A DNA stretch of 64,000 nucleotides from Eubacteriales bacterium (GCA_045636605.1 JAZTXV010000022.1:9883-73882); one strand, 5' to 3'. Positions 38,970-54,956 are shown, numbered from the stretch's first letter. Numbers and translations: made by a program. Notes: generated by a model from the sequence alone, not told the origin.

Positions 38970-38999
38970 TTGACAGCATAAAAAGTAATATAGTATAAT
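38970..38999 (+). promoter_or_regulatory. Consensus sigmaA promoter of the FtsK/WXG-like operon
   Basis: TTGACA-18 bp-TATAAT. Confidence 0.7.
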
Positions 39000-39096: not shown

Positions 39097-39462
39097 ATGA
39101 AAGAGAAGCAAACGACAATGGCGGAATGGCCGCCGACGGGTAAGACTCCGTTCAAGGAGTATATAGAGGAGCAAATGCTTTGCGCCCACGCCGAAATGTA
39201 TTCGGGAGAGACCGCATCTCCGTATTCGAGCGAGCCGTGTAGCATTGGCGACACCGCCGAGTATGAAAAAAAGCTGAGGGCATATCGCAGATGGGCAAGA
39301 AGAATAAAGAAAATACTCCAAAACGCTATTGCCGTAATTCAGCAGAAAATAGAAACACAAGCCTACAAGCTCGAAAGAGTTCGGCGTAGCCGAAAGGAAA
39401 GGGCGCAAAGGCTTATGCTCTTTGAGGACGGGGCATCGCTTAGAATAATGGCATTCAACTAA
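39097..39462 (+). CDS. Hypothetical soluble protein; apparent stand-alone copy of the N-terminal domain of the 49180/50954/53986 membrane proteins
   Basis: In-register F..I...EM.S..T.SPY...Y..K..AY pattern shared with those proteins. Confidence 0.6.
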   Translation: MKEKQTTMAEWPPTGKTPFKEYIEEQMLCAHAEMYSGETASPYSSEPCSIGDTAEYEKKLRAYRRWARRIKKILQNAIAVIQQKIETQAYKLERVRRSRKERAQRLMLFEDGASLRIMAFN

Positions 39463-39489
39463 ACGAAATTTTTAACAGGAGAAATAAAT

Positions 39490-42400
39490 ATGATAGAAAT
39501 CACAAAAATTATGGAAGTGATCGGTAGGATCAACTCCAACTGTACGACCATTGACAACCTCGAGGTAAAGTTGACAACAGAGTACAAAAGAGAAAAGAGA
39601 ACGGTAGAGTCATCGTGTACCGAAATGGTTGCGGAAATGCGACAAAAATACGATGCGTTCAAGGATAAGCATTTCCTTAGCATCAAAAGAGATATTAACG
39701 AGCTGATAGACCTTTTGAAAAAGGACTACTCTCAGGAATGGGCAAGCGTAAGTGTAAGCACCGCCGAGTTCTCTCGTAACAGCTACGAGGAAAACGAGAA
39801 GCTTCTTCACAAGATAATAGACGAGCTCAATACCGGCATCGGCAAGCTCAACGCAGTTGACTTTGATAAGCTCGTTCCACCGGTTAAAATCGAGGTAAAC
39901 GGAGAAACCTTCACAACCTTCACGGGCAATCACGAGAACAAGACAACCTACGATACCTCGACACGCAAAAGAGAGATGATAAGAGATCCCCTTCCCATCA
40001 AGGAGCTTGCAACCGAGGTGTTCGGTCACTGTAAGAGAGCCCTTGCGTGCATCGACGCATTGATTATGCTTTACGACAGACAGTTTGACATAGGCAGCTT
40101 CGCAGCCTTTGTTGACGACAGTGCGGCGGCTTGGATGGCAGAGTTTGAGTCGAAAATCCGTACAAGGTACGTAAAGAGCTTTGATGAGCTTTTTGTTGAC
40201 GAAACAGCCGGCGCAATTCCCAAGAGCTTCTTTGTGGAGCTTGACGAGGACGGCAAGAACTCCGATGTCGATGTTGTTGTAGGAGCAAGCGGCTTCAACA
40301 GAAGCATCAACATAGGTGATATCAAGCTTCTCGTTGAGGACGAGCCGAAGCACCTTAAGTACATTCAGGGAAGCCCTGTGCTTGACAGATATCTTGAAAA
40401 CGGATATCTCAGCGCACCGCTTATTCTCGACCTGAAAAAATGCGGAAATATCGTTCTTAATGTTGACGAGGAGAATTACTCCGACAAAACGATTGATTTC
40501 GTAAATCAGCTCATTATGCAATTCCTTCTTTCCTTCCCGGCAAACAGAATCAATTTCTGTCTTGTTGACGTTGATAATAAGATGGAATTTTCACAGTTCA
40601 AGAAGCTCACAAAGATAAATAATGATATCCTTCTCGGCGGCATCGTTCGTGACGACCGTAAGCTCGAGGACACAATTAAGGATATGGAAATGAGAATGTA
40701 TAAGGTAAACGACGACGTTCTCAGCTATAACGGAGTAGAGGACATCTACGAGTACAACGATCGCTTCAAGGCGAACCCGCAAAACGTTCACCTCTTTGTT
40801 CTCTCCAACTTCCCGTCGGGAATGAGAGATGAAACCGCAAGAAAGGTTCTCAAGCTCATTCAGGCAGGAAACAAGGCAGGTATTTACACAATCGTTATCA
40901 ATAACGAGTCCTGCAACCTCGGTTCAATGTTCAAGGCAAACGAATATCAGCACTTTATGCAGAACGTATCAAGCAATGCGCTTGTAATCAATAAGGTTGG
41001 CGACAGATTCACCCTTGACCTTGACACGCCAAACTACTTCGAGCCCAAGACAGACATCAGAACCTCACAGCTTGATAGCATTATCGAAATGCTCAAGGAT
41101 CACGCAACTCAGCTCAACAAGGTTGTTATTCCTCTTGAGCAAATGTTTGAGGACACCGATGCTATGGAAAAGAGCCCGAAGGGTATTCCTCCGACAGCCT
41201 CGCTTGTCGAGATTCCTATCGGTGCAAGAGGCGGAGAGCTTCAAACCCTTGCGTTGCCTACAAACGGAGACGTTCACGCAGTTGCGATCGGTGGTACCGG
41301 CTCAGGTAAGTCCAACCTCCTCCACACAATTATTATGAGCGCCTGCTACAAGTACAGCCCCGAGGAGCTCAACATTTACCTGCTTGATCTTAAGGAGGGC
41401 GTAGAGTTCAAGTATTACGAGAACCACCGTCTGCCGCACATCAAGCTTCTTGGTGTTGATCTTAAGGAGGATATCTTCTCAGCGCTCGCAATTCTTAAAA
41501 ACCTTCAAAACGAAATCACCCGCCGTGGTGCTATATTCAGAGAATGTGGCGTTTCGCAGATTGACGAATACGTTGCTAAGGGCAAAAAGATGCCGAGAAT
41601 TCTCGTTATTATCGACGAAATTCAAGAGCTCTTTGAGATTGACGAGAAAATTGGTCAAGAGGCAGTTGCTCAGCTTGCAACCTTGTTCAAGCAGGGACGT
41701 GCATTCGGTATTAACATTCTTTGGGCTTCGCAGAACGTGCCTAACTTCCCCGGACTTAAGACAAAGGTTCTCAGCCAAATTAAGAACAGAATCAGCTTGC
41801 GTCTTAACGATCCCGACGACGCTCTCAGCATAGGAATTGATCCTAAGGCAGTTAAGAACCTCAACAGACCTGAAAAGGGACTTGGTGTTATCAACGATAT
41901 TCGTTACGGTAACGACAGCGTTGAGTTCCGTGTTGCTTACGCATACGGCGTTGATGAGCGTACCACCTTCTCCGACAAGATTGTCAAAAAGTGGAAGAAG
42001 GTTACCGATGCAGTACCGCAAGCCCCGATGTTTATCGTCGGCGGAAACGAGGATCCGTCACCTATCGAGGGCGAAACACTCTTTACTCGTATTCCAACTG
42101 AAAACGACATCGTTTACAACGAGAGCGGAATGTATAACATCCAGCTCGGTCAGGACTACGTTGCAGGAAAGCCGTTTAATATCAATATTCCCATTGGCGG
42201 CGAGAAGGCAAACGTTATCGTTGCCGGCGTAGATGTCGAGATTTCAAGAGATATGATGGGCTATGCGCTCCTTTCGCTTATCGCAAACAGAGTTACCGAT
42301 AGCCAGAGCGCAAGGGAGAACGCAAAGATCTACTACGCAAACGGCGAGATGATCAACCCGAGAAACAGCTCAGATTTGTTCAACGTAATCCGTACGGATT

Positions 42401-43077
42401 TCGAGGGCTTGGTAGAGCCTGTATCGTCGGTTGAAAGGTTTAAGCTTTGCATAAAGGATCTTTACAAGCTCTATAAGGACAGAGTTGCTCAGCGTAACGA
42501 AAGTGAGGAGCTTACAGAGTTCACACCTCGCTTCCTCGTTGTTCACTCAATCCAAAGATATGCGAGCATCTTTAATGAAAACCCAACGCTTAGCCTGAGC
42601 GACGAGGGCACCCCCAACAGCGAACCGAGCGCACCGACGCCCGCCGCAACGGGAAGCCTGTTCACCGCAGGAAGCCTGTTCTCAAGCGCATCGGCTCCCG
42701 TTACTCCGTCAAGTGCGCCGAAATCTGTATCAAGCATCCTGTTCAACTCCGCAGTTAAGGAGCTTCTCACCGAGGGCGGAGCATACGGAATTCATTTTAT
42801 CGTATCAATCGACAATCCTCTCGGCATCGGTGCTATCAAGGAGGACCTCAAGAGCAGTATGTCGATCAAGCTTCTTACAAAGGGTATTGACAGCAACGCA
42901 ACGGCTCACCTTTTGAGTGGTGACTATAAGGCGGCAGGAAGCCTCAACAACCCGAAGGTTGCTCTTGTTGCTATTGCCGATGAGCGTACTAAGATAAGAG
43001 TTTACCGCTACGATGCAGAGCAGGACGGCGGCTGGTACAAGAGGCTTTGCGAAGCATACAAGAAGCTCGGAGGCTAA
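39490..43077 (+). CDS. FtsK/SpoIIIE-family (EssC/EccC-like) ATPase, soluble
   Basis: GGTGSGKS Walker A, YSPEELNIYLLDLKEGVEF, IIDEIQELF, KQGRAFGI..ASQ; degenerate ATPase-like domains on both sides; no TM stretch seen. Confidence 0.9.
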   Translation: MIEITKIMEVIGRINSNCTTIDNLEVKLTTEYKREKRTVESSCTEMVAEMRQKYDAFKDKHFLSIKRDINELIDLLKKDYSQEWASVSVSTAEFSRNSYEENEKLLHKIIDELNTGIGKLNAVDFDKLVPPVKIEVNGETFTTFTGNHENKTTYDTSTRKREMIRDPLPIKELATEVFGHCKRALACIDALIMLYDRQFDIGSFAAFVDDSAAAWMAEFESKIRTRYVKSFDELFVDETAGAIPKSFFVELDEDGKNSDVDVVVGASGFNRSINIGDIKLLVEDEPKHLKYIQGSPVLDRYLENGYLSAPLILDLKKCGNIVLNVDEENYSDKTIDFVNQLIMQFLLSFPANRINFCLVDVDNKMEFSQFKKLTKINNDILLGGIVRDDRKLEDTIKDMEMRMYKVNDDVLSYNGVEDIYEYNDRFKANPQNVHLFVLSNFPSGMRDETARKVLKLIQAGNKAGIYTIVINNESCNLGSMFKANEYQHFMQNVSSNALVINKVGDRFTLDLDTPNYFEPKTDIRTSQLDSIIEMLKDHATQLNKVVIPLEQMFEDTDAMEKSPKGIPPTASLVEIPIGARGGELQTLALPTNGDVHAVAIGGTGSGKSNLLHTIIMSACYKYSPEELNIYLLDLKEGVEFKYYENHRLPHIKLLGVDLKEDIFSALAILKNLQNEITRRGAIFRECGVSQIDEYVAKGKKMPRILVIIDEIQELFEIDEKIGQEAVAQLATLFKQGRAFGINILWASQNVPNFPGLKTKVLSQIKNRISLRLNDPDDALSIGIDPKAVKNLNRPEKGLGVINDIRYGNDSVEFRVAYAYGVDERTTFSDKIVKKWKKVTDAVPQAPMFIVGGNEDPSPIEGETLFTRIPTENDIVYNESGMYNIQLGQDYVAGKPFNINIPIGGEKANVIVAGVDVEISRDMMGYALLSLIANRVTDSQSARENAKIYYANGEMINPRNSSDLFNVIRTDFEGLVEPVSSVERFKLCIKDLYKLYKDRVAQRNESEELTEFTPRFLVVHSIQRYASIFNENPTLSLSDEGTPNSEPSAPTPAATGSLFTAGSLFSSASAPVTPSSAPKSVSSILFNSAVKELLTEGGAYGIHFIVSIDNPLGIGAIKEDLKSSMSIKLLTKGIDSNATAHLLSGDYKAAGSLNNPKVALVAIADERTKIRVYRYDAEQDGGWYKRLCEAYKKLGG

Positions 43078-43079
43078 CC

Positions 43080-43355
43080 GTGGCAGACGTAATTATTGAC
43101 GAGAGGGCGTTAGAGGAAGCCTCAGCGACCGTTAGAGTCTATCTATCAGGCTTAGACAGCGTCCTTAACGACGCCATAAGAAAAATCCAAGCATCCGCAG
43201 GAGATTGGAACGACGAGGACTACGAAAATCTGTTATCTGCCATAAGCTCATTTATGGCAGATATGGAGTCCCTCAAGGCAGGCGGGGAAGAGATTTTGTC
43301 AAGACTAAACGCAAAGATAGAGGCAATCCACAGATTGCGAAACATAACCATTTGA
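43080..43355 (+). CDS. WXG100-like helical hairpin protein (WND)
   Basis: 91 aa, amphipathic helices, central W-N-D; GTG start 2 nt after the ATPase stop. Confidence 0.7.
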   Translation: MADVIIDERALEEASATVRVYLSGLDSVLNDAIRKIQASAGDWNDEDYENLLSAISSFMADMESLKAGGEEILSRLNAKIEAIHRLRNITI

Positions 43356-43365
43356 GGTGACCTTT

Positions 43366-44283
43366 ATGGAATTTACAGGCATAGAGCAAGAGAATATCCT
43401 TACTGTCGAGAGGCTGTTTGAGAAAATCGACATTCAGGCAAGCGCCTCTGCCGAGGACATCACGGAGAGGGACGGACTTGACATTCCCGTCGGCATACGA
43501 GACGAGGATGGTGAAATACAGAATATTGTCCTTAAATCAAGCCTTTGTATAAGCAGCGTAGTCGTTGCGGGTAGTACAGGAACGGGAAAAACCAACCTTC
43601 TTAACACGATTTTGCTCAGCGCCTGCTACAAATACAGCCCCGAGGAGCTTGAGGTATATATTCTCGATTTCAATCAATATCATAGCGGATACGATCTTTA
43701 CAGGGATTGTCATCTTCCGCATCTGAGCCTGTTTAAGCCCTGCTTGGATAAAAACCCCTTCGATTTGCTTGATGTCCTAAGGGGCTTTGAGGACGAGATG
43801 ATTCGACGTGTCCAAGCATTTAATGAGGGCGGCGTCCGCCACGATTTTGACAGCTACATTCGCGCAGGCAACAAAATGAAAAGAATTCTCGTTATCGTTG
43901 ACGCAATTGAGGAGCTTTTCAGAAACGAGCAGGTAGCGGACGAGGCAGCCGATTTGCTCCGCAGCATTATAAATCGGGCAAGGCTAACAGGAATTCATTT
44001 TGTGCTTTCATTTGAGGATCTTATCTGTGTTCCGAGAATGAAAATGAAGGTGATAGCGGGACTCTGCGCAAGAGTTAGCTTACAGCTTGCCGATCCGTAC
44101 GATGCCTGCGTGCTAATGTTAAATCCCGATTCGGTTAAGGAGCTTGACGGCATCGCAGCTGCAGTTATAAATGATACTCGGTACGGCAGAGAATGTATCA
44201 AATTCCGCACAGCATACGCACACCCCACTGAGCGAAGGGCAGAGCTTGCTTTGCAAATCGCTGAAAAATGGAGAAAAATATAA
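43366..44283 (+). CDS. Single-domain FtsK paralog with degenerate Walker B
   Basis: GSTGTGKT, SACYKYSPEEL identical to the large ATPase, IVDAIEELF; RBS GAGGTG before ATG 43366. Confidence 0.85.
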   Translation: MEFTGIEQENILTVERLFEKIDIQASASAEDITERDGLDIPVGIRDEDGEIQNIVLKSSLCISSVVVAGSTGTGKTNLLNTILLSACYKYSPEELEVYILDFNQYHSGYDLYRDCHLPHLSLFKPCLDKNPFDLLDVLRGFEDEMIRRVQAFNEGGVRHDFDSYIRAGNKMKRILVIVDAIEELFRNEQVADEAADLLRSIINRARLTGIHFVLSFEDLICVPRMKMKVIAGLCARVSLQLADPYDACVLMLNPDSVKELDGIAAAVINDTRYGRECIKFRTAYAHPTERRAELALQIAEKWRKI

Positions 44284-44303
44284 ACATTACAAGGAGAAAA
44301 AAG

Positions 44304-44570
44304 ATGGCTTTTACTATTTCAGCAGAAGCGGCTAACAAGGCTATACAGTATTCGTCTGAGGCAATTCAAAGCCTTGCAGCCAACATAAACACGATGGACA
44401 CAGTTGTAAACTCAAACTTTTCGGGCCTGCAGGACCCGTCATTCCGTCGATATATCGAGCTTTCCGAGCAAATGCAGGGAATGCTAAGACAGGTTGGCAC
44501 TAAGATTGAAGCAGTCCAGGAATATTGCCAAAAGGTAATCAGATGGATTCAAGAATACGGAGAAACCTAA
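44304..44570 (+). CDS. WXG100-like small protein (LQD)
   Basis: 88 aa helical, central GLQD; RBS AAGGAG. Confidence 0.65.
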   Translation: MAFTISAEAANKAIQYSSEAIQSLAANINTMDTVVNSNFSGLQDPSFRRYIELSEQMQGMLRQVGTKIEAVQEYCQKVIRWIQEYGET

Positions 44571-44585
44571 TAGGAGGACGAAAAA

Positions 44586-44861
44586 ATGGACGCATTAAAG
44601 CTGGATCCCAATTTGCTTGACGAAACGGCTCAGGCAATCACAAATTATTGCAATATGCAAAACCAGGTAATCGAGGATTATCTTTCAAAAATGAGCGCAC
44701 TTCAGGGCGAGTGGACAGACGACCAAACAATAGGGCCGCTTCTTGAGGAGATAAGGAATCTCAAATCCTCTGTTGTCGAGCTTATGGGACAAATCAACGG
44801 CTACTACCCCGGCTATTTCAGACAAAAGGCTGAGGAAATCAGAAACAGACCTACATTCTAA
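44586..44861 (+). CDS. WXG100-like protein (WTD)
   Basis: 91 aa, LDPNLL start, central EWTD; paralog of the N-terminus of 47271. Confidence 0.75.
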   Translation: MDALKLDPNLLDETAQAITNYCNMQNQVIEDYLSKMSALQGEWTDDQTIGPLLEEIRNLKSSVVELMGQINGYYPGYFRQKAEEIRNRPTF

Positions 44862-44881
44862 TCAGGCAAAAGAGAGAAAGC

Positions 44882-45136
44882 ATGGAACAGTACGGAGCAT
44901 TTTCTCAAGCCATCATCTCGCTTGACGGTGGCTTGAGCGAGGTAAGGGCGGCTTGGCAAGACCAAACCGCTCAAACCTACGATTCGATAAACGAAAATAT
45001 GAAGGCCTGTGCGGCAGCCGTATGGCAGGTTTATACAAACGCCGCAGGCCTTTACGAAATGGAAAAGAAAAACTATAACGAGAGCGAGTTTGAGCAATAC
45101 ATAAACGAGCTCGGCGCAAGAGCATCGGCGGTGTGA
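44882..45136 (+). CDS. WXG100-like protein (WQD)
   Basis: 84 aa helical, AAWQD motif. Confidence 0.65.
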   Translation: MEQYGAFSQAIISLDGGLSEVRAAWQDQTAQTYDSINENMKACAAAVWQVYTNAAGLYEMEKKNYNESEFEQYINELGARASAV

Positions 45137-45137
45137 T

Positions 45138-46820
45138 ATGGCAAGTATAAGGGCAGTAATGTCTGCAATAGAAAAATTTAATAGCCAAAGCAACGCAGGA
45201 TATTCGGAGCTGCTCGCTATGGCAAACGAAATCCTGGCACAAACCGAAAGGCTGTGTATGGAGGTCAAGGCAGATAAGGAAACGATAGACAATCAAATAT
45301 GTCGTGCATCTGCAATAAGGGACGAGGTCTCTCAAAAGGCAAGCTTCTACGAGCATCAAATGAACGGATATTATTCGGATATGAAGCGTGCCGAGGAGGA
45401 GATAGAATATGTAATGTCCCATCCGAAAACGAGAACAGTCACCGACGACGATGGTAATTCGTACGAGGTGGAGGAAATAGATTACGGCGCACTTGCCGCA
45501 GCCGAAAGAAGATACGAAAGCGCAAAGGAAAGCTATTATCATTTTGCGAACAAATATCAAGAAGCAGCGACAATAGCAGCCGATGCAGTACAGGTAATTG
45601 CAAAATTCGAGTCAATGGGAAAGGCAGTGGCATACGTTGCGGACTCCATTGAAGCGGCAACATACGAAATCAGAAAATTCATAAGACTTATGGAGGAGGA
45701 GGCAGAATACAACCTCCAAGCGCTCTCTGCGCTTATAAGCAGACTTGGAGAATATCTGTCCTCAAAGCCGATATTCCACCCCACAGGCTCAATTTCACTG
45801 AGCGCATCAGGTGGCGCATCAGGTGGCGCATCGGTCGGCTCGTCATCCTCGGTCGGCTACTCCGCCGGAGGTAGCTCTGCTTCGTCATCATCGGGAGTCA
45901 CAAGCGGCGCTGCGACCTCGGGTGGACCAAAGGAAGGCTTTTTAAGTGATTTGTTTTCTAAATGCTTCAACAGGGAAAACACTAAGTCTAAAGAAACTGT
46001 TGATATCGAAAATGCGGCTCACGAGGAATTTAAAAAATTATTAGCGTCTAAGAAAGAGATCGATATTGAAGCTCGAAATAAGGACACTTATGATTCAAAT
46101 AATGATATTGCGGGTGATGGCAATCTTTTCTACGGCGTTGGTGGAAAGCACTTAAAGCAAGCGAAAAAGGAGCTTTTGTGCAAGCAAGGCAACAATTCTC
46201 GAAATAAATTGATGCTTGCAAGCGAGAAAAAGGGCAAGAAAGAATATGCATATACCTTTAGCGGCACATGCGGACCAACAACTCTTGCCAATACCGGAAG
46301 ACAGCTCGGACTGTCAGAGTTAACCGAAGATAAGGTAGTAACCCTTGCATGTCAACTTGGATTGTGCAGACAACCCTCATATTCAGAGGATGGTAAGTAT
46401 ATTCTGCACACCGGTGGAGGAACGAATAACGAACAGATTGTGGCATTGGCGAAGCACCTTGAGCTTGAAGCGGCATATTCTCCGAGCTTAACTCTTGAAG
46501 AGCTTGACGAAACAATCAAGCGTGGAGGAGCTATGATGATGAGCGTGTATAGCGAGGATTTATCATCGAAATCGAACCCCGCAGAAAGAAAATTTAAGAA
46601 CACAAACCACTGGGTTACCGTCACAGGAGTTACAAGAGATTCTAACGGAAAAATAGCAGGAATAATGATTACCGATACGGGAGGACACGTCGAAAGCTGT
46701 GACGGTACCGATATCATCAGCATAGAAAAATTCAATGCGATGAGAAAAAATTCGGGTGATTTTGCAGGTGTTTGCCTATTCAAGCCTGAAGCTGAGGTTA
46801 AAAAAGGAGACGACGAATGA
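45138..46820 (+). CDS. Putative polymorphic effector: helical N-terminus, G/S linker, papain-like C39-type peptidase C-terminus
   Basis: KQG..GTCGPTTLAN (Cys), TNHWVTVTG (His), ITDTG (Asp). Confidence 0.7.
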   Translation: MASIRAVMSAIEKFNSQSNAGYSELLAMANEILAQTERLCMEVKADKETIDNQICRASAIRDEVSQKASFYEHQMNGYYSDMKRAEEEIEYVMSHPKTRTVTDDDGNSYEVEEIDYGALAAAERRYESAKESYYHFANKYQEAATIAADAVQVIAKFESMGKAVAYVADSIEAATYEIRKFIRLMEEEAEYNLQALSALISRLGEYLSSKPIFHPTGSISLSASGGASGGASVGSSSSVGYSAGGSSASSSSGVTSGAATSGGPKEGFLSDLFSKCFNRENTKSKETVDIENAAHEEFKKLLASKKEIDIEARNKDTYDSNNDIAGDGNLFYGVGGKHLKQAKKELLCKQGNNSRNKLMLASEKKGKKEYAYTFSGTCGPTTLANTGRQLGLSELTEDKVVTLACQLGLCRQPSYSEDGKYILHTGGGTNNEQIVALAKHLELEAAYSPSLTLEELDETIKRGGAMMMSVYSEDLSSKSNPAERKFKNTNHWVTVTGVTRDSNGKIAGIMITDTGGHVESCDGTDIISIEKFNAMRKNSGDFAGVCLFKPEAEVKKGDDE

Positions 46821-47245
46821 ATAACATAGAAAAAATAATATCGGCATGTCACTACCATAGAGAAAAAAGTCAATCGTTGTCCGTTCCGTTTATTGTCAAT
46901 GACAACGGAACAGCAAAGATATCATGCTTCACTTATGACGAGCAGGAATTTGACGATAAGAACATTGTTATATCTGTTGGCGAGGCTTTTTTGACCGATT
47001 ATGAAAAAATGCAGCTTGAAATTCTTAAGGTTACAGCTCAGCCCGACATTTTCCCGCTTGAAATCGTATATGACGATTCGGTAAGCATCACAAGAGAAAG
47101 CATAGATGCGTACTATGACTACCTTGACGAGATTATGTCAAACGGAAAAATAGACAAGGAAAAATACAAGAAACTCTTTTATACGATTTGCCCTAAAAGC
47201 CTGAAGCCTATTTATGACTTCTTCGGCGCAGAATTTATAGATTGA
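46817..47245 (+). CDS. Putative immunity protein for 45138
   Basis: Small acidic ORF overlapping the effector stop (ATGA). Confidence 0.55.
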   Translation: MNNIEKIISACHYHREKSQSLSVPFIVNDNGTAKISCFTYDEQEFDDKNIVISVGEAFLTDYEKMQLEILKVTAQPDIFPLEIVYDDSVSITRESIDAYYDYLDEIMSNGKIDKEKYKKLFYTICPKSLKPIYDFFGAEFID

Positions 47246-47270
47246 CACCTCTTTCAAAACGGAGAGAAAA

Positions 47271-48365
47271 ATGGACGAGCTTATTTTAGATCCCAACGCT
47301 CTTGCCGAGCTGGCAAGAATAATCGAAGAATATTGTGACAAGCAGTCGGCAATTCTTGAGGAATACCAATCGAATATGTTATCCCTCGAGAGCGAATGGG
47401 ATGACGACCAAACCTTTGGCGAAATGCTAAAGGAAATATTGTCGCTAAAGCAGCAAATCCAACAAATGCTTGGGCAATTCAAGGGCTTTTACCCGCAATT
47501 TTTCAGAGAAAAAGCAGAAAAAATCGCAGGACGCCCGATATTTACAGGCGCATCGGGCGGAATTGGCTCCTTTGGCGGATTTGTCAGTGGTGGCTATGGC
47601 TCGGGTGGCGCATCCTTTGGCGGAGCATCCGGTGGTGCTTCGGGCGCAGGCTCATTCGGCTCATCCCCGTCAAGTGTGGCGGGTGGCGATTTCGTCTCTG
47701 ACGGCAAAAGACCGACCTCGCTTAAAAAAACAAGACAAGAGTGGCATATCGACGGCTATGTCAAGACCTTCAACACCCCCGTTGAAACCGGAAAGCTGCT
47801 CAACTCCAACCAAGGCGTTCCGAAATCGCTTGGCGGAGAGGGCATTGACGGATTCAGAGGAACGTGCGGACTTGTCAGCGTCGAAAACGTCTTGCGTATG
47901 GCAGGCGTAAAAATCACCGAGGCGGAAATTGTGGAATACGCAAGAACGCATATCGGCAAGGGAGAAAGAATGCTCTGCACAACAAATAATACCCCGGGCA
48001 GAAACGGCGGCACGTACCCGGAGGACAGACAGGCAATTTTAAGACACTTCGGCATTGAATCCACAATCGAAAAATATTCCCTTGATACAATGGCGTCAGC
48101 CGTTGAGCAGGGCAGAGGAGTTATCGTGTCGGTTGATGCAAACGTGCTATGGCACGGCATAAGCGTAGCAGATAAGGCGTATCACGCCGTTACGGTAACA
48201 AGCATACAAAGAGATAAAGCAACGGGCGAAATCACAGGCGTTTACGTCTGCGACTCGGGCGCAAGAGGAAGCTCAAGCGCCGTGCTTGTCCCCGTTGAAA
48301 AAATGACCTATGCCCTTGAAAACGGCACAGGTAAAATGAACGTAACAAGCACAATAATAAGGTAA
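47271..48365 (+). CDS. Putative effector: WXG100-like domain, G/S linker, C39-type peptidase
   Basis: EWDDDQT N-terminal domain; NQG..GTCGLVSVENV, YHAVTVT, VCDSG triad. Confidence 0.75.
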   Translation: MDELILDPNALAELARIIEEYCDKQSAILEEYQSNMLSLESEWDDDQTFGEMLKEILSLKQQIQQMLGQFKGFYPQFFREKAEKIAGRPIFTGASGGIGSFGGFVSGGYGSGGASFGGASGGASGAGSFGSSPSSVAGGDFVSDGKRPTSLKKTRQEWHIDGYVKTFNTPVETGKLLNSNQGVPKSLGGEGIDGFRGTCGLVSVENVLRMAGVKITEAEIVEYARTHIGKGERMLCTTNNTPGRNGGTYPEDRQAILRHFGIESTIEKYSLDTMASAVEQGRGVIVSVDANVLWHGISVADKAYHAVTVTSIQRDKATGEITGVYVCDSGARGSSSAVLVPVEKMTYALENGTGKMNVTSTIIR

Positions 48366-48377
48366 GGGTGGTGCGAT

Positions 48378-48872
48378 ATGGAATATAACGAAATCATAAA
48401 CAGAGCAATGGATGCGTTTTATGAAAGCGGCAGAGATTTCCCATCCACTATGCTTTGCCCGATATTAGAGCACGATAACGAAGGCAACGTGGTTGACAGA
48501 TTTTTGATGTGTGACGTCGTACGAAATTTCCAAAACGGAAAAATCGAAGGCATTGACGGCCCATACGAAATTTATCAGCAACGAACAGATACAGATACCA
48601 TAGGCGAATTTTTGAAGCCCGAGCAAGTAAGGTCAACTCCAAAGGAGAATGCGCCTCCTCTCACAGACGGAGTGAGCATCTCGGAATTTTCGGCGCTTTA
48701 TTTGCAGGTAAGAGAATTCGTATTCAAAAAACAGATAACAAATGCTCAAGCGGAGGCTCTTGTAAGACTCTTAACCATTTACGAGGAGCTTTTTGAGGCG
48801 GAATTTCAAGCGTTGTATCAAAGCTACGGCGCAGGCTTCTTCGATTGGGCACATTCTACGGTAAGGAGTTAA
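48378..48872 (+). CDS. Putative immunity protein for 47271
   Basis: Directly downstream of the effector; weak similarity to 46817 (P....DN.G; Y..[FY]GA.F). Confidence 0.55.
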   Translation: MEYNEIINRAMDAFYESGRDFPSTMLCPILEHDNEGNVVDRFLMCDVVRNFQNGKIEGIDGPYEIYQQRTDTDTIGEFLKPEQVRSTPKENAPPLTDGVSISEFSALYLQVREFVFKKQITNAQAEALVRLLTIYEELFEAEFQALYQSYGAGFFDWAHSTVRS

Positions 48873-48876
48873 GATA

Positions 48877-49170
48877 ATGGACAAAATAAGTGTAACCGAC
48901 GGCGCACTCTCATCTGTCAGAAGCACACTTGAGGCGCTAAAGAGTGAGCTTAGCACGGTAACGGGGCAATGCTCCTCGACTCTGAACGGAGCGCTTGACA
49001 GCTTAGACGAAAGCATAAGGGGCGCAATCGCAGAATTCGCCGAGGCAATCCAAGCCTTCAGTCAAGCGGTGGCAAACTGCGTTGACGAAAACGTTGCCGC
49101 AATCGACGAGAGACTTTCGAAGCTTCCCCCGTACGAATCACAAATATATCAAAGAAGAAATATAGGTTAA
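48877..49170 (+). CDS. WXG100-like small helical protein (LDE)
   Basis: 97 aa, ISVTDGAL start, two long amphipathic helices. Confidence 0.6.
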   Translation: MDKISVTDGALSSVRSTLEALKSELSTVTGQCSSTLNGALDSLDESIRGAIAEFAEAIQAFSQAVANCVDENVAAIDERLSKLPPYESQIYQRRNIG

Positions 49171-49179
49171 GCGAAGGAA

Positions 49180-50943
49180 ATGGATTTTAAAAAGTCAATA
49201 ACACAGCATTTAGAACGAAAATATGTTCAAATGCTTAACAGAGAAGCGCCGATACCATATACAGAGGCAGTCGGCATTGATAACAGCGACTCGTATAGCG
49301 AGAAAAGAGAAAAATATTACAGTCGACTCTCTCGGGAAAAGAACGAGTTTAACCAATCGGTAGTCAAAATAACAGATGCCGAGGCGGCTCGCTTGGGCGC
49401 AGAAAATGACGAGCTTGAAAGAATAGCGATGGCGAAATTCAGAAGGACAAGGGCAATAAGAACAATACTGTTCATTTTGCCCGTGATAGTTGCCGCCCTC
49501 GTCGGACTTGACGTGTTCACCGAATCGCACGGCCACATGGATACAATCCAATACGATTTGGGAATAGACCTTGGATGGATAATATTCTTCTATGTTTTAT
49601 TCTGCCTTGCGGCGCTCGTCGGATCGGCAATTCTGCTCAACATTTCAATGTACTCAAACGAAATGTACATAGATCGCACAACGATAATCGGCAAGAAAAA
49701 ATACAACACAATAGCTATCGTTGTATTCGCTCTTACCTTAATAATCGTGCTGATTAACGCATTTCAGCTTATTCAAAATCTCGGCAAAGGCAAGATCGTT
49801 TTGGTAGGCGCTGACCGCAGAGAGATAAAATATTTTGAAAGCGGCACGGAGTTTGTTTTCCCCGAGCCAAAAAAGGCTGACGAGAAAAAAGAGGACCATT
49901 TCATAAGATACACCTTCACGCATTGGGAAATAGGAGATGAAAAATACAATGCGGGAGATACCATAGCCCTTGACGGCTGGTACACTGCAACCGCTGTTTT
50001 TGAGGACAGAAAATGGGCAACCCTTTCGTTTTCATTCTCCAATTCGTCAATGTCCGTTGAATATGACGGCAAGACAATCAGTGTAAAATCGGGCGACCAA
50101 ATTGAGATTCCGTGCGGAACGCAGGTTAAGGTAGAGGTGGATTTCTATTATTCGGATACCTCGTTTACCGTGAACGGTAGCAGTGCAAAAAACCCGCATA
50201 GCTTCACACTGTCCTCGAACATGAGGTTCTCTGCTACAAGCTCCAGCCCGGGATGTATCGCTCCCGGAACGGAAATCGTTCTTTTTGACGGAACGGTAAA
50301 GCTTGTCGAGGAGCTTGAAATGGGAGATATGCTCCTGGTGTTCAACCACGAAAGCGGAAAATACGAGGCGCATCCGCTTCTTGCCAATATTCACGCAAAT
50401 ACAGCGCCCGACTACTTTGATGTAATAAAGCTCACGTTCTCAAACGGCAAGGAGCTTAAAATAATTGACGAGCACGGGCTTTTTGATAAGAGCCTGAATC
50501 GCTATGTTTACCTGAACGCAGAAAATGCGGGTGATTTCATAGGTCACCGCTTTGCTTGCGTTGAGCGTAGCGGCTCAGATGTGGTAACCTCGGATACAGT
50601 CTTGGAGAGCGTTACCATAACAAACGAGCTTACAAAAATCTACAATCCCGCATCAATTTGGCATATAAACCTCGTTGCAAACGATTTTCTGACGCTTTCG
50701 GCAGGTATGGTGAATTTGTTTGAATACGACGAGAATATGAAATACGATGAGGAAAAAATGCTAAGCGATATTGAAAAATACGGCTTGTTCACCTACGAGG
50801 ATTTCAAGGACTACGTGCCGTATGAGGTATATCAGATATTCCCATTCAAGTATTATAAGGTAGCAATCTCAAAGGGAGAGTTTACATACCAACGATTGCT
50901 CGGACTTATAGCGCTATACAATAACCCGGACTCTATAAGGTAA
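49180..50943 (+). CDS. Membrane protein: shared N-terminal domain, 3 TM, InlB-like repeats, Hint autoprocessing domain and C-terminal tail
   Basis: PG/CIAPGTEIVLFDGTVKLVEELEMGD (Hint block A), ELKIIDEHGLF (block B), KIYNP...NLVANDFLT. Confidence 0.8.
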   Translation: MDFKKSITQHLERKYVQMLNREAPIPYTEAVGIDNSDSYSEKREKYYSRLSREKNEFNQSVVKITDAEAARLGAENDELERIAMAKFRRTRAIRTILFILPVIVAALVGLDVFTESHGHMDTIQYDLGIDLGWIIFFYVLFCLAALVGSAILLNISMYSNEMYIDRTTIIGKKKYNTIAIVVFALTLIIVLINAFQLIQNLGKGKIVLVGADRREIKYFESGTEFVFPEPKKADEKKEDHFIRYTFTHWEIGDEKYNAGDTIALDGWYTATAVFEDRKWATLSFSFSNSSMSVEYDGKTISVKSGDQIEIPCGTQVKVEVDFYYSDTSFTVNGSSAKNPHSFTLSSNMRFSATSSSPGCIAPGTEIVLFDGTVKLVEELEMGDMLLVFNHESGKYEAHPLLANIHANTAPDYFDVIKLTFSNGKELKIIDEHGLFDKSLNRYVYLNAENAGDFIGHRFACVERSGSDVVTSDTVLESVTITNELTKIYNPASIWHINLVANDFLTLSAGMVNLFEYDENMKYDEEKMLSDIEKYGLFTYEDFKDYVPYEVYQIFPFKYYKVAISKGEFTYQRLLGLIALYNNPDSIR

Positions 50944-50953
50944 GGAGATAAAA

Positions 50954-53833
50954 ATGAACTTCAGACAATCAACCACACAGCACGCAGAGCAAAAATACAC
51001 AAAAATGCTTGACAGAGCAACACCCTCGCCCTACACCAAGGGCGTCGTCGTTGACTCGAGTGGCACATATAGCTCAAAGCGTGACTCATACTATAGCCGC
51101 CTTTCTCGTGAAAAAAATGAATTCAACAAGGCCCTAAAAGAGGTAAAGGACGCAGAGGCGGCTCGCCTTGGCGCTGAAAACGAAAGGCTTGAAGCGGCGG
51201 CAAGGGCAAAATACAGGATTTTCAAGACATTAAAAATCCTTACATTTTTGCTTCCGATTTTAATGGCGGCTATCACGGGAGTTGAGATTTTCTCCCAAAA
51301 AGCTCTTTTTGATCAAATGACAGATGTACCCTATATTTTCTTCTGGGTAGTATTTTCTCTTGTGTCGCTTATTGCATCAATCAGGCTTATTACCTCACTC
51401 AACAACAATCAAATCTACTATAACAGAAATCACATATCCGAAAGCGCAAAATACACCACCCTTGCGATAGTCACAACGGCTGTCGTTTTGGGAATACTTA
51501 TATTCTTCTTCTCGCTTACAGGCTCAATTTTGCCACAAAAGCACGATTTCGTGTTCGTGGAAAGAGGCGGAGAATACTACCTCACAGGCTACACGGGAAA
51601 CAGCCCGCTTTTAGTCTTGCCCGAGGATTACGAGGGACAATCCTACCGTATCGCTGAAGGCGCATTCCAGGATCTTGACGAGGCAACAAGCGTCAGAATT
51701 CCGGAAAAGGTGCTTTCAATCGACAACGATGCCTTCGACGGCTGTAATCTTACGAGCATAACAATTCTCAACAAGGATATCGAGCTCAGAGGAAGCCGCG
51801 CCTTTGGCGATTCCTACGATAACAAAAATATTGAATACATCGAAGCGCCCACGCAGGTGTTGAGCCAGCTCCATCTTGGCAACGCACTCAAAACGGCAAT
51901 TGTTACCGGTGGCGAAACCGTTCCCGCAAACGCCTTCAAAAGCTGCTACTCAATAGAAACACTTAAGATTGCAAGCAGTGTAACCTTGCTCGAGGCAGGC
52001 GCATTCAACACAAGCCTTGCTCCCACTCACATCGACGTTCCGGCATATGCGCTTAAAATTATAGGCTCAAAGAATTTTGAAACCGTAGTTATAAACACGG
52101 GATATAACATTCTTGACAATTCCTTTTCGGGCGCATCCAAGCTTACAAGCGTAAAGCTTCCAAACACACTGCAAACAATAGGCGAAAAGGCGTTCTATAA
52201 CTGCACCTCTCTTACAAGCGTGGAAATCCCAAGCGGAGTAATCTCGATTGGCGCAAACGCATTCTACAACTGCCCAATCGAAAGCATAAGCATTCCAAAC
52301 GGAGTAACCGTTATACCCGAGCAGGCATTTGCAGGCACCGCTCTTAAAGCGGTGGAGATTCCCGAGAGCGTAACCGAAATCGGCACGTATGCGTTTAGCG
52401 ATTGCACCGCTCTTAAAACGGTAGAAATTTCCGAGGGCGTAACCGACATCGGCACGTATGCGTTTAGCAATTGCACCTCTCTTGAAAGTGTAAGCATTCC
52501 GTCCACGATGACAAAAATCAATGAAAGAGCCTTCAAAAACTGCTCCTCACTTAAGAGCATAGAAATTCCCAAGAATGTAACCGAAATTGGCTCATCTGCC
52601 TTCTACGGCTGCAGCTCACTTACAAGCGTTGTCGTTCCCGAGTCCGTAACTGCAATTGGATACGGTGCCTTCTGTGGCTGCAATTCTCTTGTGGAAATAA
52701 CACTTCCGTTCATCGGAAAAGATTATTCTCCCGCCGAGGTGCGTTGGACTACCTTCGGTTACATATTCGGCGACAAGGATGATGACGGCTATATGTCCTC
52801 ATCATACAGCAGCACCTATAAAACAAGCGATTCAAGCGAATATACAACTCAAAACGGTTATTACTTCTATATCCCCGATTCGCTCAAAAAGGTAACGATA
52901 ACAAATCAGTCAACCGTGTGTGATTATGCCTTTGCAAACTGCGATTTGATTGAAACCATCGAATATTCAAACGACATAACCTCACTTGGCAAATACGCAT
53001 TCTCAAATTGCGGCTCTATTGAGCAAATCCCCGATCTTAAAATAACATCAATCCCCGAAAGGGCATTCTCTGCGTGCTACGCTCTTACAAGCATAGAAAT
53101 CCCCGAGGACATAACCGAAATCGGCACGTATGCGTTTAGCGATTGCAGCACCCTTACAAGCATAGTATTGCCCGTGTCATTGGGAAAAATATACTCTTAC
53201 GCCTTTAGCAACTGCACGTCACTTGAAAGCCTCGTAATTCCAAAAAATGTAACAGAAATAGGAACAGGCGCATTCTCGGGCTGCACAGCTGTTACGGAGA
53301 TTGCCTTCAATGCATCAACAATGAACGACCTAAAAAGCTCCAACTACGTATTTTACAACGTTGGAAAGGAAGCGGACGGAATAAAGCTTACAATAGGCAA
53401 TAGCGTAACAAAAATTCCGGCATATCTGTTCTACCCATACAGTAGCTCATCATATGCTCCGAAAATAACGAGTGTTTCCTTTGAGCAGAACAGCGTATGT
53501 CAGAGCATAGGAAATTACGCCTTTAACTGTTGCTCATCGCTTGTGAGCATAGTATTCCCAACCTCGCTCACCGAGATAGGCTATGCGGCATTTACGAGCT
53601 GCACATCTCTTACAACGATAGATATTCCAAGCAGCGTAAAATACATCGGCGCATACGCATTCCAGGCCTGCTCATCTCTTACAACTGCAATCTTTGCAGT
53701 ACCAAGCGGATGGTTCCGTACGTCAAGCAGCACAGCGACAAGTGGAACGGTTATCAATAACCTCGGCAATACCTCAACTGCTGCACAATACCTAAAATCA
53801 ACCTATTACAACTACTACTGGAAGCGCAGCTGA
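50954..53833 (+). CDS. Membrane protein: shared N-terminal domain, 3 TM, BspA-type LRR_5 array
   Basis: Many L.S..IP.SVT.IG..AF..C repeats. Confidence 0.88.
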   Translation: MNFRQSTTQHAEQKYTKMLDRATPSPYTKGVVVDSSGTYSSKRDSYYSRLSREKNEFNKALKEVKDAEAARLGAENERLEAAARAKYRIFKTLKILTFLLPILMAAITGVEIFSQKALFDQMTDVPYIFFWVVFSLVSLIASIRLITSLNNNQIYYNRNHISESAKYTTLAIVTTAVVLGILIFFFSLTGSILPQKHDFVFVERGGEYYLTGYTGNSPLLVLPEDYEGQSYRIAEGAFQDLDEATSVRIPEKVLSIDNDAFDGCNLTSITILNKDIELRGSRAFGDSYDNKNIEYIEAPTQVLSQLHLGNALKTAIVTGGETVPANAFKSCYSIETLKIASSVTLLEAGAFNTSLAPTHIDVPAYALKIIGSKNFETVVINTGYNILDNSFSGASKLTSVKLPNTLQTIGEKAFYNCTSLTSVEIPSGVISIGANAFYNCPIESISIPNGVTVIPEQAFAGTALKAVEIPESVTEIGTYAFSDCTALKTVEISEGVTDIGTYAFSNCTSLESVSIPSTMTKINERAFKNCSSLKSIEIPKNVTEIGSSAFYGCSSLTSVVVPESVTAIGYGAFCGCNSLVEITLPFIGKDYSPAEVRWTTFGYIFGDKDDDGYMSSSYSSTYKTSDSSEYTTQNGYYFYIPDSLKKVTITNQSTVCDYAFANCDLIETIEYSNDITSLGKYAFSNCGSIEQIPDLKITSIPERAFSACYALTSIEIPEDITEIGTYAFSDCSTLTSIVLPVSLGKIYSYAFSNCTSLESLVIPKNVTEIGTGAFSGCTAVTEIAFNASTMNDLKSSNYVFYNVGKEADGIKLTIGNSVTKIPAYLFYPYSSSSYAPKITSVSFEQNSVCQSIGNYAFNCCSSLVSIVFPTSLTEIGYAAFTSCTSLTTIDIPSSVKYIGAYAFQACSSLTTAIFAVPSGWFRTSSSTATSGTVINNLGNTSTAAQYLKSTYYNYYWKRS

Positions 53834-53985
53834 CCTTGAATTAAAGCAAGTCAAAGGCCAAGCAAAAAACCTAAGCGAATTTGAAATCGCAGGAACATAT
53901 TTAGGAAAGAACCGGCGAGCATGAGCAGATTGGTCGGGAGCTTCGTAAATGGCGTTGCTACAAAAACAAACACAAGGAACAAACA

Positions 53986-54810
53986 ATGAATTTTGGACAG
54001 TCAATCCTAAAACACACAGAGAAAAAATATACCGATATGCTAAGCAGAGCAACACCCTCGCCCTATACCAAGAGCGAGAGTGTTGACTCAAGTAATCCGT
54101 ATAGCTCTAAGCGTGATGCATACTACAATCGCCTCGCTCGTGAAAGACGGGAGTTCAACGGTGCGCTTGATACGATTTTAGACACAGAGGACGCTCGTTT
54201 AAGAGAAGAAAGAAATCTAAAGGAAAGAAAGCGCCGCGACCGTCGCCGTGCAAGGAAAGTAAACCTTCCGTTTATTCTGTCAATTATTCTTTCCCTTGCC
54301 GTGACCTTTGTGGTTGTGCCTCTCGAGGCATACGCCTGGGTGGCAGAAACGCTCATACCCTCGGCTTCACTTGCAAATTTCTTTAACACCGGGCCAAACG
54401 GAGAGGGAATTCTCGCATTACAACTAACCCTTGCGCTATTTTTGATAAGCTTGCTAATAGCAATAATTATCATGATAAAAAAAGAGGGATTTTTGGCTTT
54501 CTTGGGGTTCATTTGGACAAGCTTTTTAGTGCTTTTGTTCCTTGGCTCAATCATTTTGGGAATTCTGTTCTGCGTATTTAGATTTTTGGTATTTTTGATT
54601 TCGTACGTATCGTTTGCACTTGTCAGCTCTGTTGCCCCGTTGGCGCTCGGAGTGGCATCGATCACCCTTATGATAATATACGGCAGGGGAATGGAGCTTA
54701 AGCGCAACAAGGCTAAGACCGCTATAAAAATCGTGGCAGGCGTTTTGATAGCCGTAGTTCTTTTCGGCTTGGCAGACAGCGCAATGCCATACTATTACTC
54801 AATTTTCTAA
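53986..54810 (+). CDS. Membrane protein: shared N-terminal domain plus ~5 TM helices
   Basis: N-terminus clearly similar to 50954, then hydrophobic segments only. Confidence 0.8.
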   Translation: MNFGQSILKHTEKKYTDMLSRATPSPYTKSESVDSSNPYSSKRDAYYNRLARERREFNGALDTILDTEDARLREERNLKERKRRDRRRARKVNLPFILSIILSLAVTFVVVPLEAYAWVAETLIPSASLANFFNTGPNGEGILALQLTLALFLISLLIAIIIMIKKEGFLAFLGFIWTSFLVLLFLGSIILGILFCVFRFLVFLISYVSFALVSSVAPLALGVASITLMIIYGRGMELKRNKAKTAIKIVAGVLIAVVLFGLADSAMPYYYSIF

Positions 54811-54822
54811 TAGCTAAAAAAT

Positions 54823-54853
54823 AAAACGGACTGCCGTCGGGCAGTCCGTTTTT
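54823..54853 (+). terminator. Terminator ending the FtsK/WXG-like operon
   Basis: AAAACGGACTGCC/GGCAGTCCGTTTTT. Confidence 0.85.
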
Positions 54854-54956
54854 GAATCCCCTGTGCTCAAATTCCAACTAACTATTGCGACACGATGGTT
54901 TTTGTGCTATACTATAATTGTATATATTATATTAAGGAAGAAAGTGCGGCCGAAAA

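Follow-up and report, generated by a model that had tools for sequence, protein, structure and literature searches.

What does a single N-terminal domain do at the head of three neighboring membrane proteins whose remaining parts differ from each other? The question is raised by a 64,000-nucleotide stretch of DNA from an Eubacteriales bacterium (GCA_045636605.1, JAZTXV010000022.1:9883-73882), here called the window, in which three consecutive plus-strand open reading frames encode proteins of 587, 959 and 274 residues, designated A, B and C. The original prediction, made from the sequence of the window, held that the three proteins share a novel and probably cytoplasmic domain of about 90 residues joined to swappable outward modules, and that their genes could be substrates for recombinational shuffling. 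Our results demonstrate that this head, which we named N-dom, is an undescribed domain family marking an undescribed variant of a type VII secretion system (T7SS)-like cluster in uncultured gut Clostridia. We assign a probability of roughly 0.5 to the reading in which the membrane part of this variant is supplied by the N-dom proteins, with N-dom acting as a cytoplasmic docking handle and the ectodomains as swappable surface modules.

The shared domain and its family

Residues 1 to about 92 of A, B and C aligned nearly without gaps, with 40 invariant columns that agree with the motif string given in the original prediction, and the domain of the other two proteins was 47% and 38% identical to that of A. 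Kyte-Doolittle windows placed three transmembrane (TM) helices after the domain in A, three in B and four in C; here and below, TM helices were called from hydropathy only. The claim of three reading frames with a common N-terminus followed by TM helices was thus borne out. The length of about 90 residues is correct for all three, but the part common to A and B extends over about 190 residues, comprising N-dom and a bundle of three TM helices, with 45% identity over residues 1–191. This degree of conservation in the bundle exceeds what a passive anchor would need. Similarly, three copies were correctly named, but the window contains a fourth, TM-less copy and the genome two more elsewhere. The home genome (G000; 1.6 Mb in 40 contigs, 73% complete) has five membrane N-dom genes, the three in the window and two with leucine-rich repeats (LRRs), located amid housekeeping genes on contigs C33 (421 residues) and C27 (611 residues). 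The sixth copy, the 121-residue protein Nsol, is encoded directly upstream of a large ATPase gene. BLAST relatives of Nsol were TM-less family members of about 115–125 residues (P0118, P0110 and P0085), and an ortholog lies upstream of the ATPase in a second genome, G967.

In an AlphaFold2 model of residues 1–200 of B (mean predicted local distance difference test score, pLDDT, 83.5; 28-row alignment), a helix at residues 3–19 and a loop at 20–35 are followed by a helix at 36–114 that runs unbroken from the cytoplasmic part into TM1, and then by TM2 (127–152), a short hairpin and TM3 (164–191). Within the long helix, Y39, R43, Y46, L50, E53 and F57 are conserved and spaced three to four positions apart, and would therefore lie on one face of the helix, as for a helix-helix interface. 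Among 35 members with three TM helices, lysines plus arginines averaged 5.1 over the 15 residues that precede TM1 and 5.0 over loop 2; on the opposite side, the averages were 1.3 for loop 1 and 1.5 for the part following TM3. This bias is a positive-inside signature indicating a protein with its N-terminus in and its C-terminus out, so that N-dom is predicted to be cytoplasmic, in agreement with the original prediction. A complex prediction for N-dom (A8, 95 residues) with s97 (A7), the small helical protein encoded just upstream of A, gave a score of 0.01, which weighs neither way on binding.

A profile built from five sequences recovered 121 relatives (E ≤ 1e-3) from among 1.84e9 representative proteins, 59 of them at E ≤ 1e-10, which puts the similarity well beyond chance. 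The match began at or before residue 23 in all but two of these (P0108 and P0119). Hydropathy assigned three TM helices to 41 relatives, four to 20, five to 15, one to 19, two to three, six to one and none to one, while the remaining 21 were shorter than 190 residues, a class made up of fragments or a soluble form. A Pfam scan, with matches counted at E ≤ 1e-4, covered 105 relatives, 13 being left out as short and three more to keep the scan within a size limit. LRR_5 was found in 22 of them and Hint in two; Lectin_C, DUF6273, GLUG, RHS_repeat, Laminin_G_2 and PDZ_2 were found in one each, and 72 had no family. The picture of a constant head with variable outward bodies, drawn for three proteins in the original prediction, therefore holds family-wide, and the partners collected by this search with the N-terminal 90 residues were LRR, Hint, lectin or RHS modules, or TM helices only. 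In one relative (P0131, 875 residues), an LRR-like stretch of about 290 residues precedes N-dom and makes it internal; this layout may stem from a gene call that fused two genes, or may represent a genuine variant whose LRR is cytoplasmic.

The description of the domain as novel stands for Pfam, NCBIfam, PADLOC and PHROGs, in which residues 1–92 of the window proteins had no match, and for PDB sequences, among which a profile search found only helical-bundle noise (best E 0.21). A Foldseek search of the PDB with the model of N-dom and its three TM helices returned nothing at E ≤ 1e-3, the best match being to generic helical membrane proteins at E 1.3, and a search of the ESM Atlas with the 274-residue protein returned nothing useful (best score 0.78). 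Among the 105 scanned relatives, N-dom was overlapped only by weak family matches that stayed under the cut-offs (DUF6161, DUF2207_C, DUF3671 and DUF3043), and members of the family are currently annotated as 'hypothetical protein'. The idea that N-dom is a known T7SS component was dropped, as no family match was found.

A predicted soluble ATPase and its candidate membrane partners

Every gene from 39097 to 54810 lies on the plus strand with short gaps, and the large ATPase is encoded near the head of this cluster. The best NCBIfam match of the ATPase was TIGR03928, EssC (E 4.8e-32), followed by EccCa and EccCb, all ahead of DNA translocase FtsK (E 7e-8). The protein has no predicted TM helix, its maximum 19-residue hydropathy being 1.35. 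No 19-residue window reached 1.6 in three orthologs from other loci, and no pair of TM helices was predicted among 84 members of the ATPase family (E ≤ 1e-10 clusters). Such a window was present in 21 of the 84, but it corresponded to one conserved motif containing polar residues in 18, to lysine-containing segments in two, and to an N-terminal stretch of a 678-residue fragment in the last. Members of this family are annotated as 'DNA translocase FtsK', 'AAA family ATPase' or 'hypothetical protein'; three of them (P0205, P0221 and P0234) are ATPases of about 1520 residues with Sel1 repeats (PF08238). The other FtsK-family gene in the home genome is one ordinary gene on contig C35.

[quoted passage not shown] The ten subtypes described there, T7SSb to T7SSj among them, all have a membrane-bound ATPase and have subtype-specific membrane partners, as in the contact between the pseudokinase domain of EssB and the FHA domains of EssC. 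The available main text of that work contains neither a subtype with a soluble ATPase nor a component resembling N-dom, and nowhere does it use the words 'soluble', 'no transmembrane', 'Hint' or 'Christensenell' (the supplementary accession lists are outside this comparison). A full-text literature search found no paper on a T7SS-like variant with a soluble ATPase. As far as that text allows comparison, the cluster resembles T7SSb–j in its EssC/EccC-like ATPase, in several helical proteins of about 90–100 residues, in larger toxin-like proteins with a helical N-terminus, variable C-termini and candidate immunity genes behind them, and in cluster-encoded membrane proteins, particular to each subtype, that extend into the cytoplasm and to the outside. 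It differs in that the ATPase is without TM helices and the membrane proteins are of a family not mentioned there. Because the ATPase is without TM helices and no Pfam WXG100 protein was found, we call the cluster type VII-like rather than a member of a described subtype.

No cluster protein before A has a TM helix by hydropathy, and on the coding strand of seven complete clusters TM helices were predicted only in N-dom proteins, apart from frames lying within other genes and one ATPase motif that is not a TM helix. Within the cluster, the N-dom proteins are the sole candidates for a membrane part. PF08817 (YukD) and PF10140 (EssB/YukC) were not found in the 73% complete home genome, EssA and EsaA not having been searched; with YukC/EssB, YukD and Pfam WXG100 all missing from the genome as sequenced, no canonical membrane partner was found. 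The N-dom proteins are like EssB and EsaA of T7SSb, and TscD and TsdI of T7SSc/d, as described in the available part of PMC11217815, in being membrane proteins of one or several passes, encoded in the cluster, that have either an N-terminal domain in the cytoplasm, said for EssB to contact the ATPase, or an extended extracellular portion for which a span across the envelope has been proposed. In contrast to these, N-dom is a two-helix element of about 90 residues and not a kinase fold, it is unrelated to EssB in sequence (no PF10140 match), and it occurs in several paralogs with interchangeable ectodomains.

Examination of other genomes revealed that the association is conserved. Counting the home genome, N-dom was carried by two of 201 genomes of the same family (G000 and G156), one of 401 in the order and one of 400 in the class. 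Of the 201 family genomes, G000 and G156 were also the ones with close relatives of the distinctive N-terminal 570 residues of the ATPase, and one weak match of 21% identity was found besides; the 400 genomes of the order had no close relative, the one match being a 1482-residue frame in G402 with 22% identity. ATPase and N-dom occurred together in all seven carrier genomes, and neither was found in 199 other genomes of the family or in 400 of the order. A degenerate DNA pattern for the N-dom motif marked eight stretches among genome contigs, seven of them true and the eighth a chance match in Micromonospora. It marked five stretches among metagenome contigs, with one true locus (L020), and none among viral contigs. 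The true stretches came from metagenome-assembled genomes (MAGs) of three rabbit-gut Clostridia, a mouse Christensenellaceae and a goat-colon Clostridia, the last with two stretches and four N-dom genes, and from L028, which was taken as the G156:C4 locus and not analyzed separately. The cluster is carried by uncultured Clostridia from the guts of ruminants, rabbits, mice and humans.

The order ATPase, s102, s100, s91, s84, one or more toxin-like genes, s97 and one or more N-dom membrane proteins was kept in G000, G156 and G965–G969 and in the L020 fragment, according to a BLAST-labelled map. In five further genomes, all 11 N-dom matches lay on the contig of the ATPase and downstream of it. 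Overall, 16 of 18 membrane N-dom genes were inside such a cluster, those outside being the two unlinked LRR genes of the home genome. A lack of linkage between N-dom homologs and FtsK/WXG genes, named as refuting in the original prediction, was not observed: the N-dom genes were tightly linked to FtsK-type ATPase and WXG-like genes in every other genome examined. Full-length orthologs of A, with 46–67% identity, were found in G967, G968 and G969, and orthologs of C in G967 (full-length, 49% identity) and G969 (partial), while the minimal clusters of G965 and G966 have a single N-dom protein with three TM helices each. For eight Hint-class N-dom proteins and an equal number of ATPase relatives in the large protein collection, the recorded longest contigs are identical in length, and one such pair has the locus tags IJF11_05510 and IJF11_05570, which places the genes 12 apart if tags advance in steps of five.

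The reading that we favor at even odds can be stated as a series of steps. The EssC-type ATPase of this cluster would have lost its own TM helices, and the soluble protein would be held at the membrane through the cytoplasmic N-dom, with or without s97. A passage for the small helical and toxin-like proteins would be formed, wholly or in part, by the conserved TM bundle, and the variable C-termini (a BspA-type LRR, Hint or none) would be exposed at the surface as alternative adhesion or processing modules. The family itself, its topology signature, its modular makeup, its synteny and its co-occurrence with the ATPase were observed, and docking, channel function, secretion and the ectodomain roles are what we infer. 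The identity of the T7SS channel is still debated. A soluble motor with membrane proteins that share one small cytoplasmic domain would separate 'motor' from 'membrane part', and N-dom is a directly testable candidate for the docking interface.

It is conceivable that the arrangement goes further, although we regard this extension as doubtful. A soluble hexameric motor of the EssC type could be recruited through N-dom to interchangeable conduits, each equipped with a surface module of its own (LRR adhesin, lectin, RHS or Hint), so that target recognition is built into the translocon. In that case one cell could run several 'aimed' versions of the machine, including copies encoded elsewhere, and the TM-less N-dom protein would be a competitor or an assembly factor at the docking site. 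The family ties BspA-type adhesins, Hint modules and other surface modules to a cluster of the toxin-export type; if the ectodomains do aim the system, this would be a new way in which Gram-positive gut bacteria couple adhesion with contact-dependent antagonism.

The small protein s97, encoded immediately 5' of the first N-dom membrane gene in all eight loci, is among the features in favor of another interpretation. The available part of PMC10801868 describes LXG toxins that have a constant helical N-terminus and polymorphic C-termini and are accompanied by small helical genes upstream encoding Lap targeting partners, and N-dom proteins share all three features. They could then be clients of the ATPase, with N-dom, perhaps bundled with s97 in the way that Lap proteins pair with LXG domains, as a targeting signal by which the ATPase recognizes surface or membrane proteins for insertion, sorting or co-delivery. 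A constant helical head of about 90 residues with polymorphic ends (LRR, Hint, RHS, lectin and Laminin G) is the pattern of a T7SS substrate, unlinked paralogs are usual for substrates, and a soluble protein consisting of N-dom only exists. However, N-dom is followed by TM helices, unlike the LXG head, and the positive-inside signature would keep it in the cytoplasm of the producer, the rest being exported by ordinary signal-anchor logic. Clients of this kind would also leave the cluster without any membrane component, and the Hint-class and multi-TM-class proteins are conserved orthologs at fixed positions rather than variable cargo. We consider the client interpretation unlikely.

The patchy spread of the genes across the genomes surveyed is also what would be expected if N-dom and its TM helices were a general anchor or oligomerization module, unconnected with the ATPase and co-travelling with it on a mobile competition or adhesion island. 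Two of the five membrane copies in the home genome are unlinked, the clusters of G156 and G968 have integrase-like neighbors, the first N-dom gene has been replaced as a cassette in one strain (see below), and an adhesin-type LRR is the commonest partner of the domain (22 of 105). On the other hand, gene order is kept at 47–66% ATPase identity with differing flanks, N-dom genes are retained even in minimal clusters of six to seven genes, a TM-less N-dom gene stands beside the ATPase at the head of the operon in two genomes, and no other membrane partner for the ATPase was found. A general anchor therefore appears quite unlikely to us.

Several observations weigh against the N-dom proteins being the membrane part of a T7SS-like machine. 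The two unlinked LRR-class genes demonstrate that N-dom can be encoded away from the cluster. All loci come from related gut Clostridia, so that synteny may partly reflect the common descent of one island, and the degenerate DNA pattern covers only 50 of the 121 family members. Two genomes have, immediately upstream of the ATPase, an integrase-like gene of about 315 codons (G156:C4:30710-31654 and G968:C2:99762-100730) with a similar N-terminal sequence in both, which hints that the cluster can reside on a mobile element. The EssC/EccC scores are far under the curated cut-offs, with one ATPase domain matched; PF06013 (WXG100) was matched neither by the cluster proteins nor elsewhere in the home genome; and Pfam reported no LXG domain in the toxin-like proteins at E ≤ 0.01. 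The designation 'type VII-like' accordingly describes a resemblance in ATPase type, gene sizes, motifs and polymorphic-toxin layout, as judged from sequence, and with the genome only 73% complete the absent canonical parts are not proven absent. Finally, the Hint domain and the tail that follows it in A also end about 40 proteins (P0150–P0193) that have ordinary signal-anchor N-termini and no N-dom, which indicates that the ectodomains do not need N-dom.

Surface modules and variation between strains

The modules named in the original prediction were confirmed to different degrees. The LRR array of B was confirmed, with LRR_5 (PF13306) matched at E 1.9e-142 (467.8 bits, seven stretches) and above the gathering score. 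B, its two unlinked paralogs and 22 of the 105 relatives resemble BspA-type LRR_5 surface proteins in this array; they differ in that the anchor is N-terminal and composed of N-dom and three TM helices. A signal peptide together with a cell-wall or C-terminal anchor is usual in other LRR_5 proteins. In C, only more TM helices follow N-dom.

The Hint assignment of A was sub-threshold in Pfam (E 8.7e-4, 19.4 bits compared to a cut-off of 29.7), and was strengthened by the predicted structure. In a full-length model (pLDDT 84.1; 32-row alignment), the beta domain at about residues 358–506 had 44 Foldseek matches in the PDB at E ≤ 1e-3, the best at E 7e-8. The top matches were inteins, the Hint domain of Hedgehog and BIL domains (E 7e-8 to 4e-5, TM-score normalized to the target about 0.8). 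Cys359, which occupies the place of the nucleophile in Hint domains, was invariant in all 32 rows. The modelled beta domain of A has the Hint fold, and autoprocessing is only putative. A is thus like the Hint and BIL autoprocessing domains in its fold and its invariant first-residue cysteine, and unlike them in its sub-cut-off Pfam score, in a C-terminal catalytic motif that is not clear and in an added helical tail of about 70 residues. Searches recovered 24 more Hint-class N-dom relatives of 578–611 residues. Given its recurrence in proteins with other N-termini, the combination of Hint and the conserved helical tail of about 70 residues is an independent extracellular module, which agrees with the idea of swappable modules. 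The InlB-like repeats also ascribed to A had no Pfam match in A itself, but some of the proteins sharing its Hint and tail carry Flg_new (InlB B-repeat, PF09479) or Big_2, or bear the name 'InlB B-repeat-containing protein'.

Evidence for shuffling among the N-dom genes was weak. The DNA identity reported near 51013 and 54045 was confirmed as an exact 21-mer that occurs at these two places in the window and nowhere else in it, with none expected in shuffled sequences. The N-dom DNA of the three paralogs is 60–70% identical, and the run shared by B and C is longer than expected (P about 0.013 in shuffles that preserve codon position and ignore uneven amino-acid constraint). At this P value, and with flanking DNA only about 70% identical, the run was rejected as proof of recent recombination. 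Contigs from four animal-gut sequencing runs were also compared over 48800–55000, with partial cover, such that gaps are no evidence and rare variants are invisible. In run X5, the contig departs from the window after the stop codon of s97 (49171), and similarity returns at 50950, just before B. The replacement gene begins with M-D-F-K-Q and also has the N-dom motif. The first N-dom gene has thus been swapped as a whole cassette, with break points in the two intergenic spacers. The 21-nucleotide run and this replacement speak for recombinational shuffling of N-dom genes, but no exchange within the shared domain was seen, and the proposal is at best weakly supported. In the spacer between B and C (53839–53964), three of the four runs (X1, X3 and X5) lack 124 nucleotides and have five other letters instead, a difference that represents either an insert in the window strain or a deletion in the others.

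Gene content of the cluster and its surroundings

The features of the cluster are listed in Table 1. A promoter-like sequence and a terminator-like hairpin, each known from consensus scans only, bracket all 16 genes.

Table 1. Features of the type VII-like cluster in the window, with the evidence for each.
Feature	Coordinates	Strand	Remarks
Promoter-like TTGACA-18-TATAAT	38970..38999	+	12/12 positions; consensus scan only; upstream of first cluster gene
Nsol, 121-residue TM-less N-dom protein	39097..39462	+	N-dom profile E 5.5e-11, residues 19–104
1195-residue FtsK/SpoIIIE-type ATPase	39490..43077	+	PF01580 E 5e-33; nearest EssC/EccC
s102, 102-residue helical protein	43047..43355	+	Conserved W-x-D-E-D motif; orthologs in 5 other clusters
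308-residue protein, second FtsK-type ATPase domain	43357..44283	+	PF01580 E 5e-15
s100, 100-residue helical protein	44268..44570	+	Orthologs 49–58% identical in 5 clusters
s91, 91-residue WXG100-like protein	44586..44861	+	E-W-x-D-D-Q-T motif; same domain heads 364-residue toxin-like protein
s84, 84-residue helical protein	44882..45136	+	Orthologs in 4 clusters
560-residue polymorphic toxin-like protein	45138..46820	+	Helical N-terminal 218 residues, Gly/Ser linker, Peptidase_C39_2-like C-terminus
142-residue candidate immunity protein	46817..47245	+	Position after toxin-like gene; no family match
364-residue toxin-like protein	47271..48365	+	s91-type N-terminal domain, Gly/Ser linker, Peptidase_C39_2-like C-terminus
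164-residue candidate immunity protein	48378..48872	+	Position; ortholog only in G967, with same toxin type
s97, 97-residue conserved helical protein	48877..49170	+	8-row alignment, 13 invariant columns
A, 587-residue Hint-class N-dom protein	49180..50943	+	N-dom 1–92; 3 TM helices ~95–195; beta-rich 204–355; Hint fold ~358–506 with Cys359; helical tail 524–580
B, 959-residue LRR-class N-dom protein	50954..53833	+	N-dom, 3 TM helices, BspA-type LRR ectodomain
C, 274-residue multi-TM-class N-dom protein	53986..54810	+	N-dom and at least 4 TM helices; without ectodomain
Terminator-like hairpin	54823..54852		13-bp GC-rich stem, A/T flanks; consensus scan; follows last N-dom gene

The cluster encodes five helical proteins of about 84–102 residues, three of which have a central W-x-D motif. 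Full-length PDB matches of s91 to the WXG100 proteins SAG1039 (E 0.56) and EsxB (E 0.89) were non-significant, and profile searches of the PDB with s91, s100, s102 and s97 returned helical-bundle noise only. The smaller ATPase is 36% identical to residues 546–838 of the large one; the pairing of an s102-like protein with a single-domain ATPase of about 300 residues after the large ATPase was found only in G000 and G967 (G967:C12:47991-49177).

The layout of the toxin-like genes would fit LXG toxins, with a conserved N-terminus of 218 or 91 residues, varying C-termini and small genes after them. The N-terminal 218 residues of the 560-residue protein are kept in all seven other loci, where the C-termini vary, and its own C-terminus matched PF13529 at E 2.2e-5. 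The Peptidase_C39_2-like ends of the two toxin-like proteins scored E 2e-5 (560 residues) and 5e-8 (364 residues), and a C-terminal module of this kind was not met in the available text of PMC11217815 on T7SS toxins.

These genes bear on one more explanation of the N-dom proteins with several TM helices, namely that they are membrane immunity proteins, in paralogous copies, against a membrane-acting toxin of the cluster. As paralogous polytopic membrane proteins they close a toxin cluster, and the minimal clusters are without a separate immunity gene between the toxin and s97. Paralogous arrays of membrane immunity genes are typical of T7SSb loci. Nevertheless, toxin C-termini vary between loci in which N-dom and s97 are both conserved, and immunity proteins normally co-vary with their toxins; large LRR or Hint ectodomains would not be expected of immunity proteins, and the recognized toxin domains are peptidase-like and not membrane-acting. 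We judge this explanation to be very improbable, and a membrane part with a docking domain remains our preferred reading of the N-dom proteins.

An origin of the cluster in a defense system or a phage was considered and dropped, since PADLOC and PHROGs gave P-loop matches only. In PADLOC, only the two ATPases matched (P-loop regions of SspH, mad8 and HerA), and 13 other proteins did not. The home genome and G967 share their chromosomal flanks: one flank has a helicase and SbcCD-like genes, and the other a gene of the metallo-beta-lactamase fold and an SNF2-type helicase. Adjoining the cluster in the window, the minus strand of 32126–37999 encodes a 424-residue DUF2201 metallopeptidase/VWA-like protein, a 370-residue AAA ATPase and a 1166-residue SNF2/ResIII helicase, a trio with the look of a separate module, perhaps for defense or repair.

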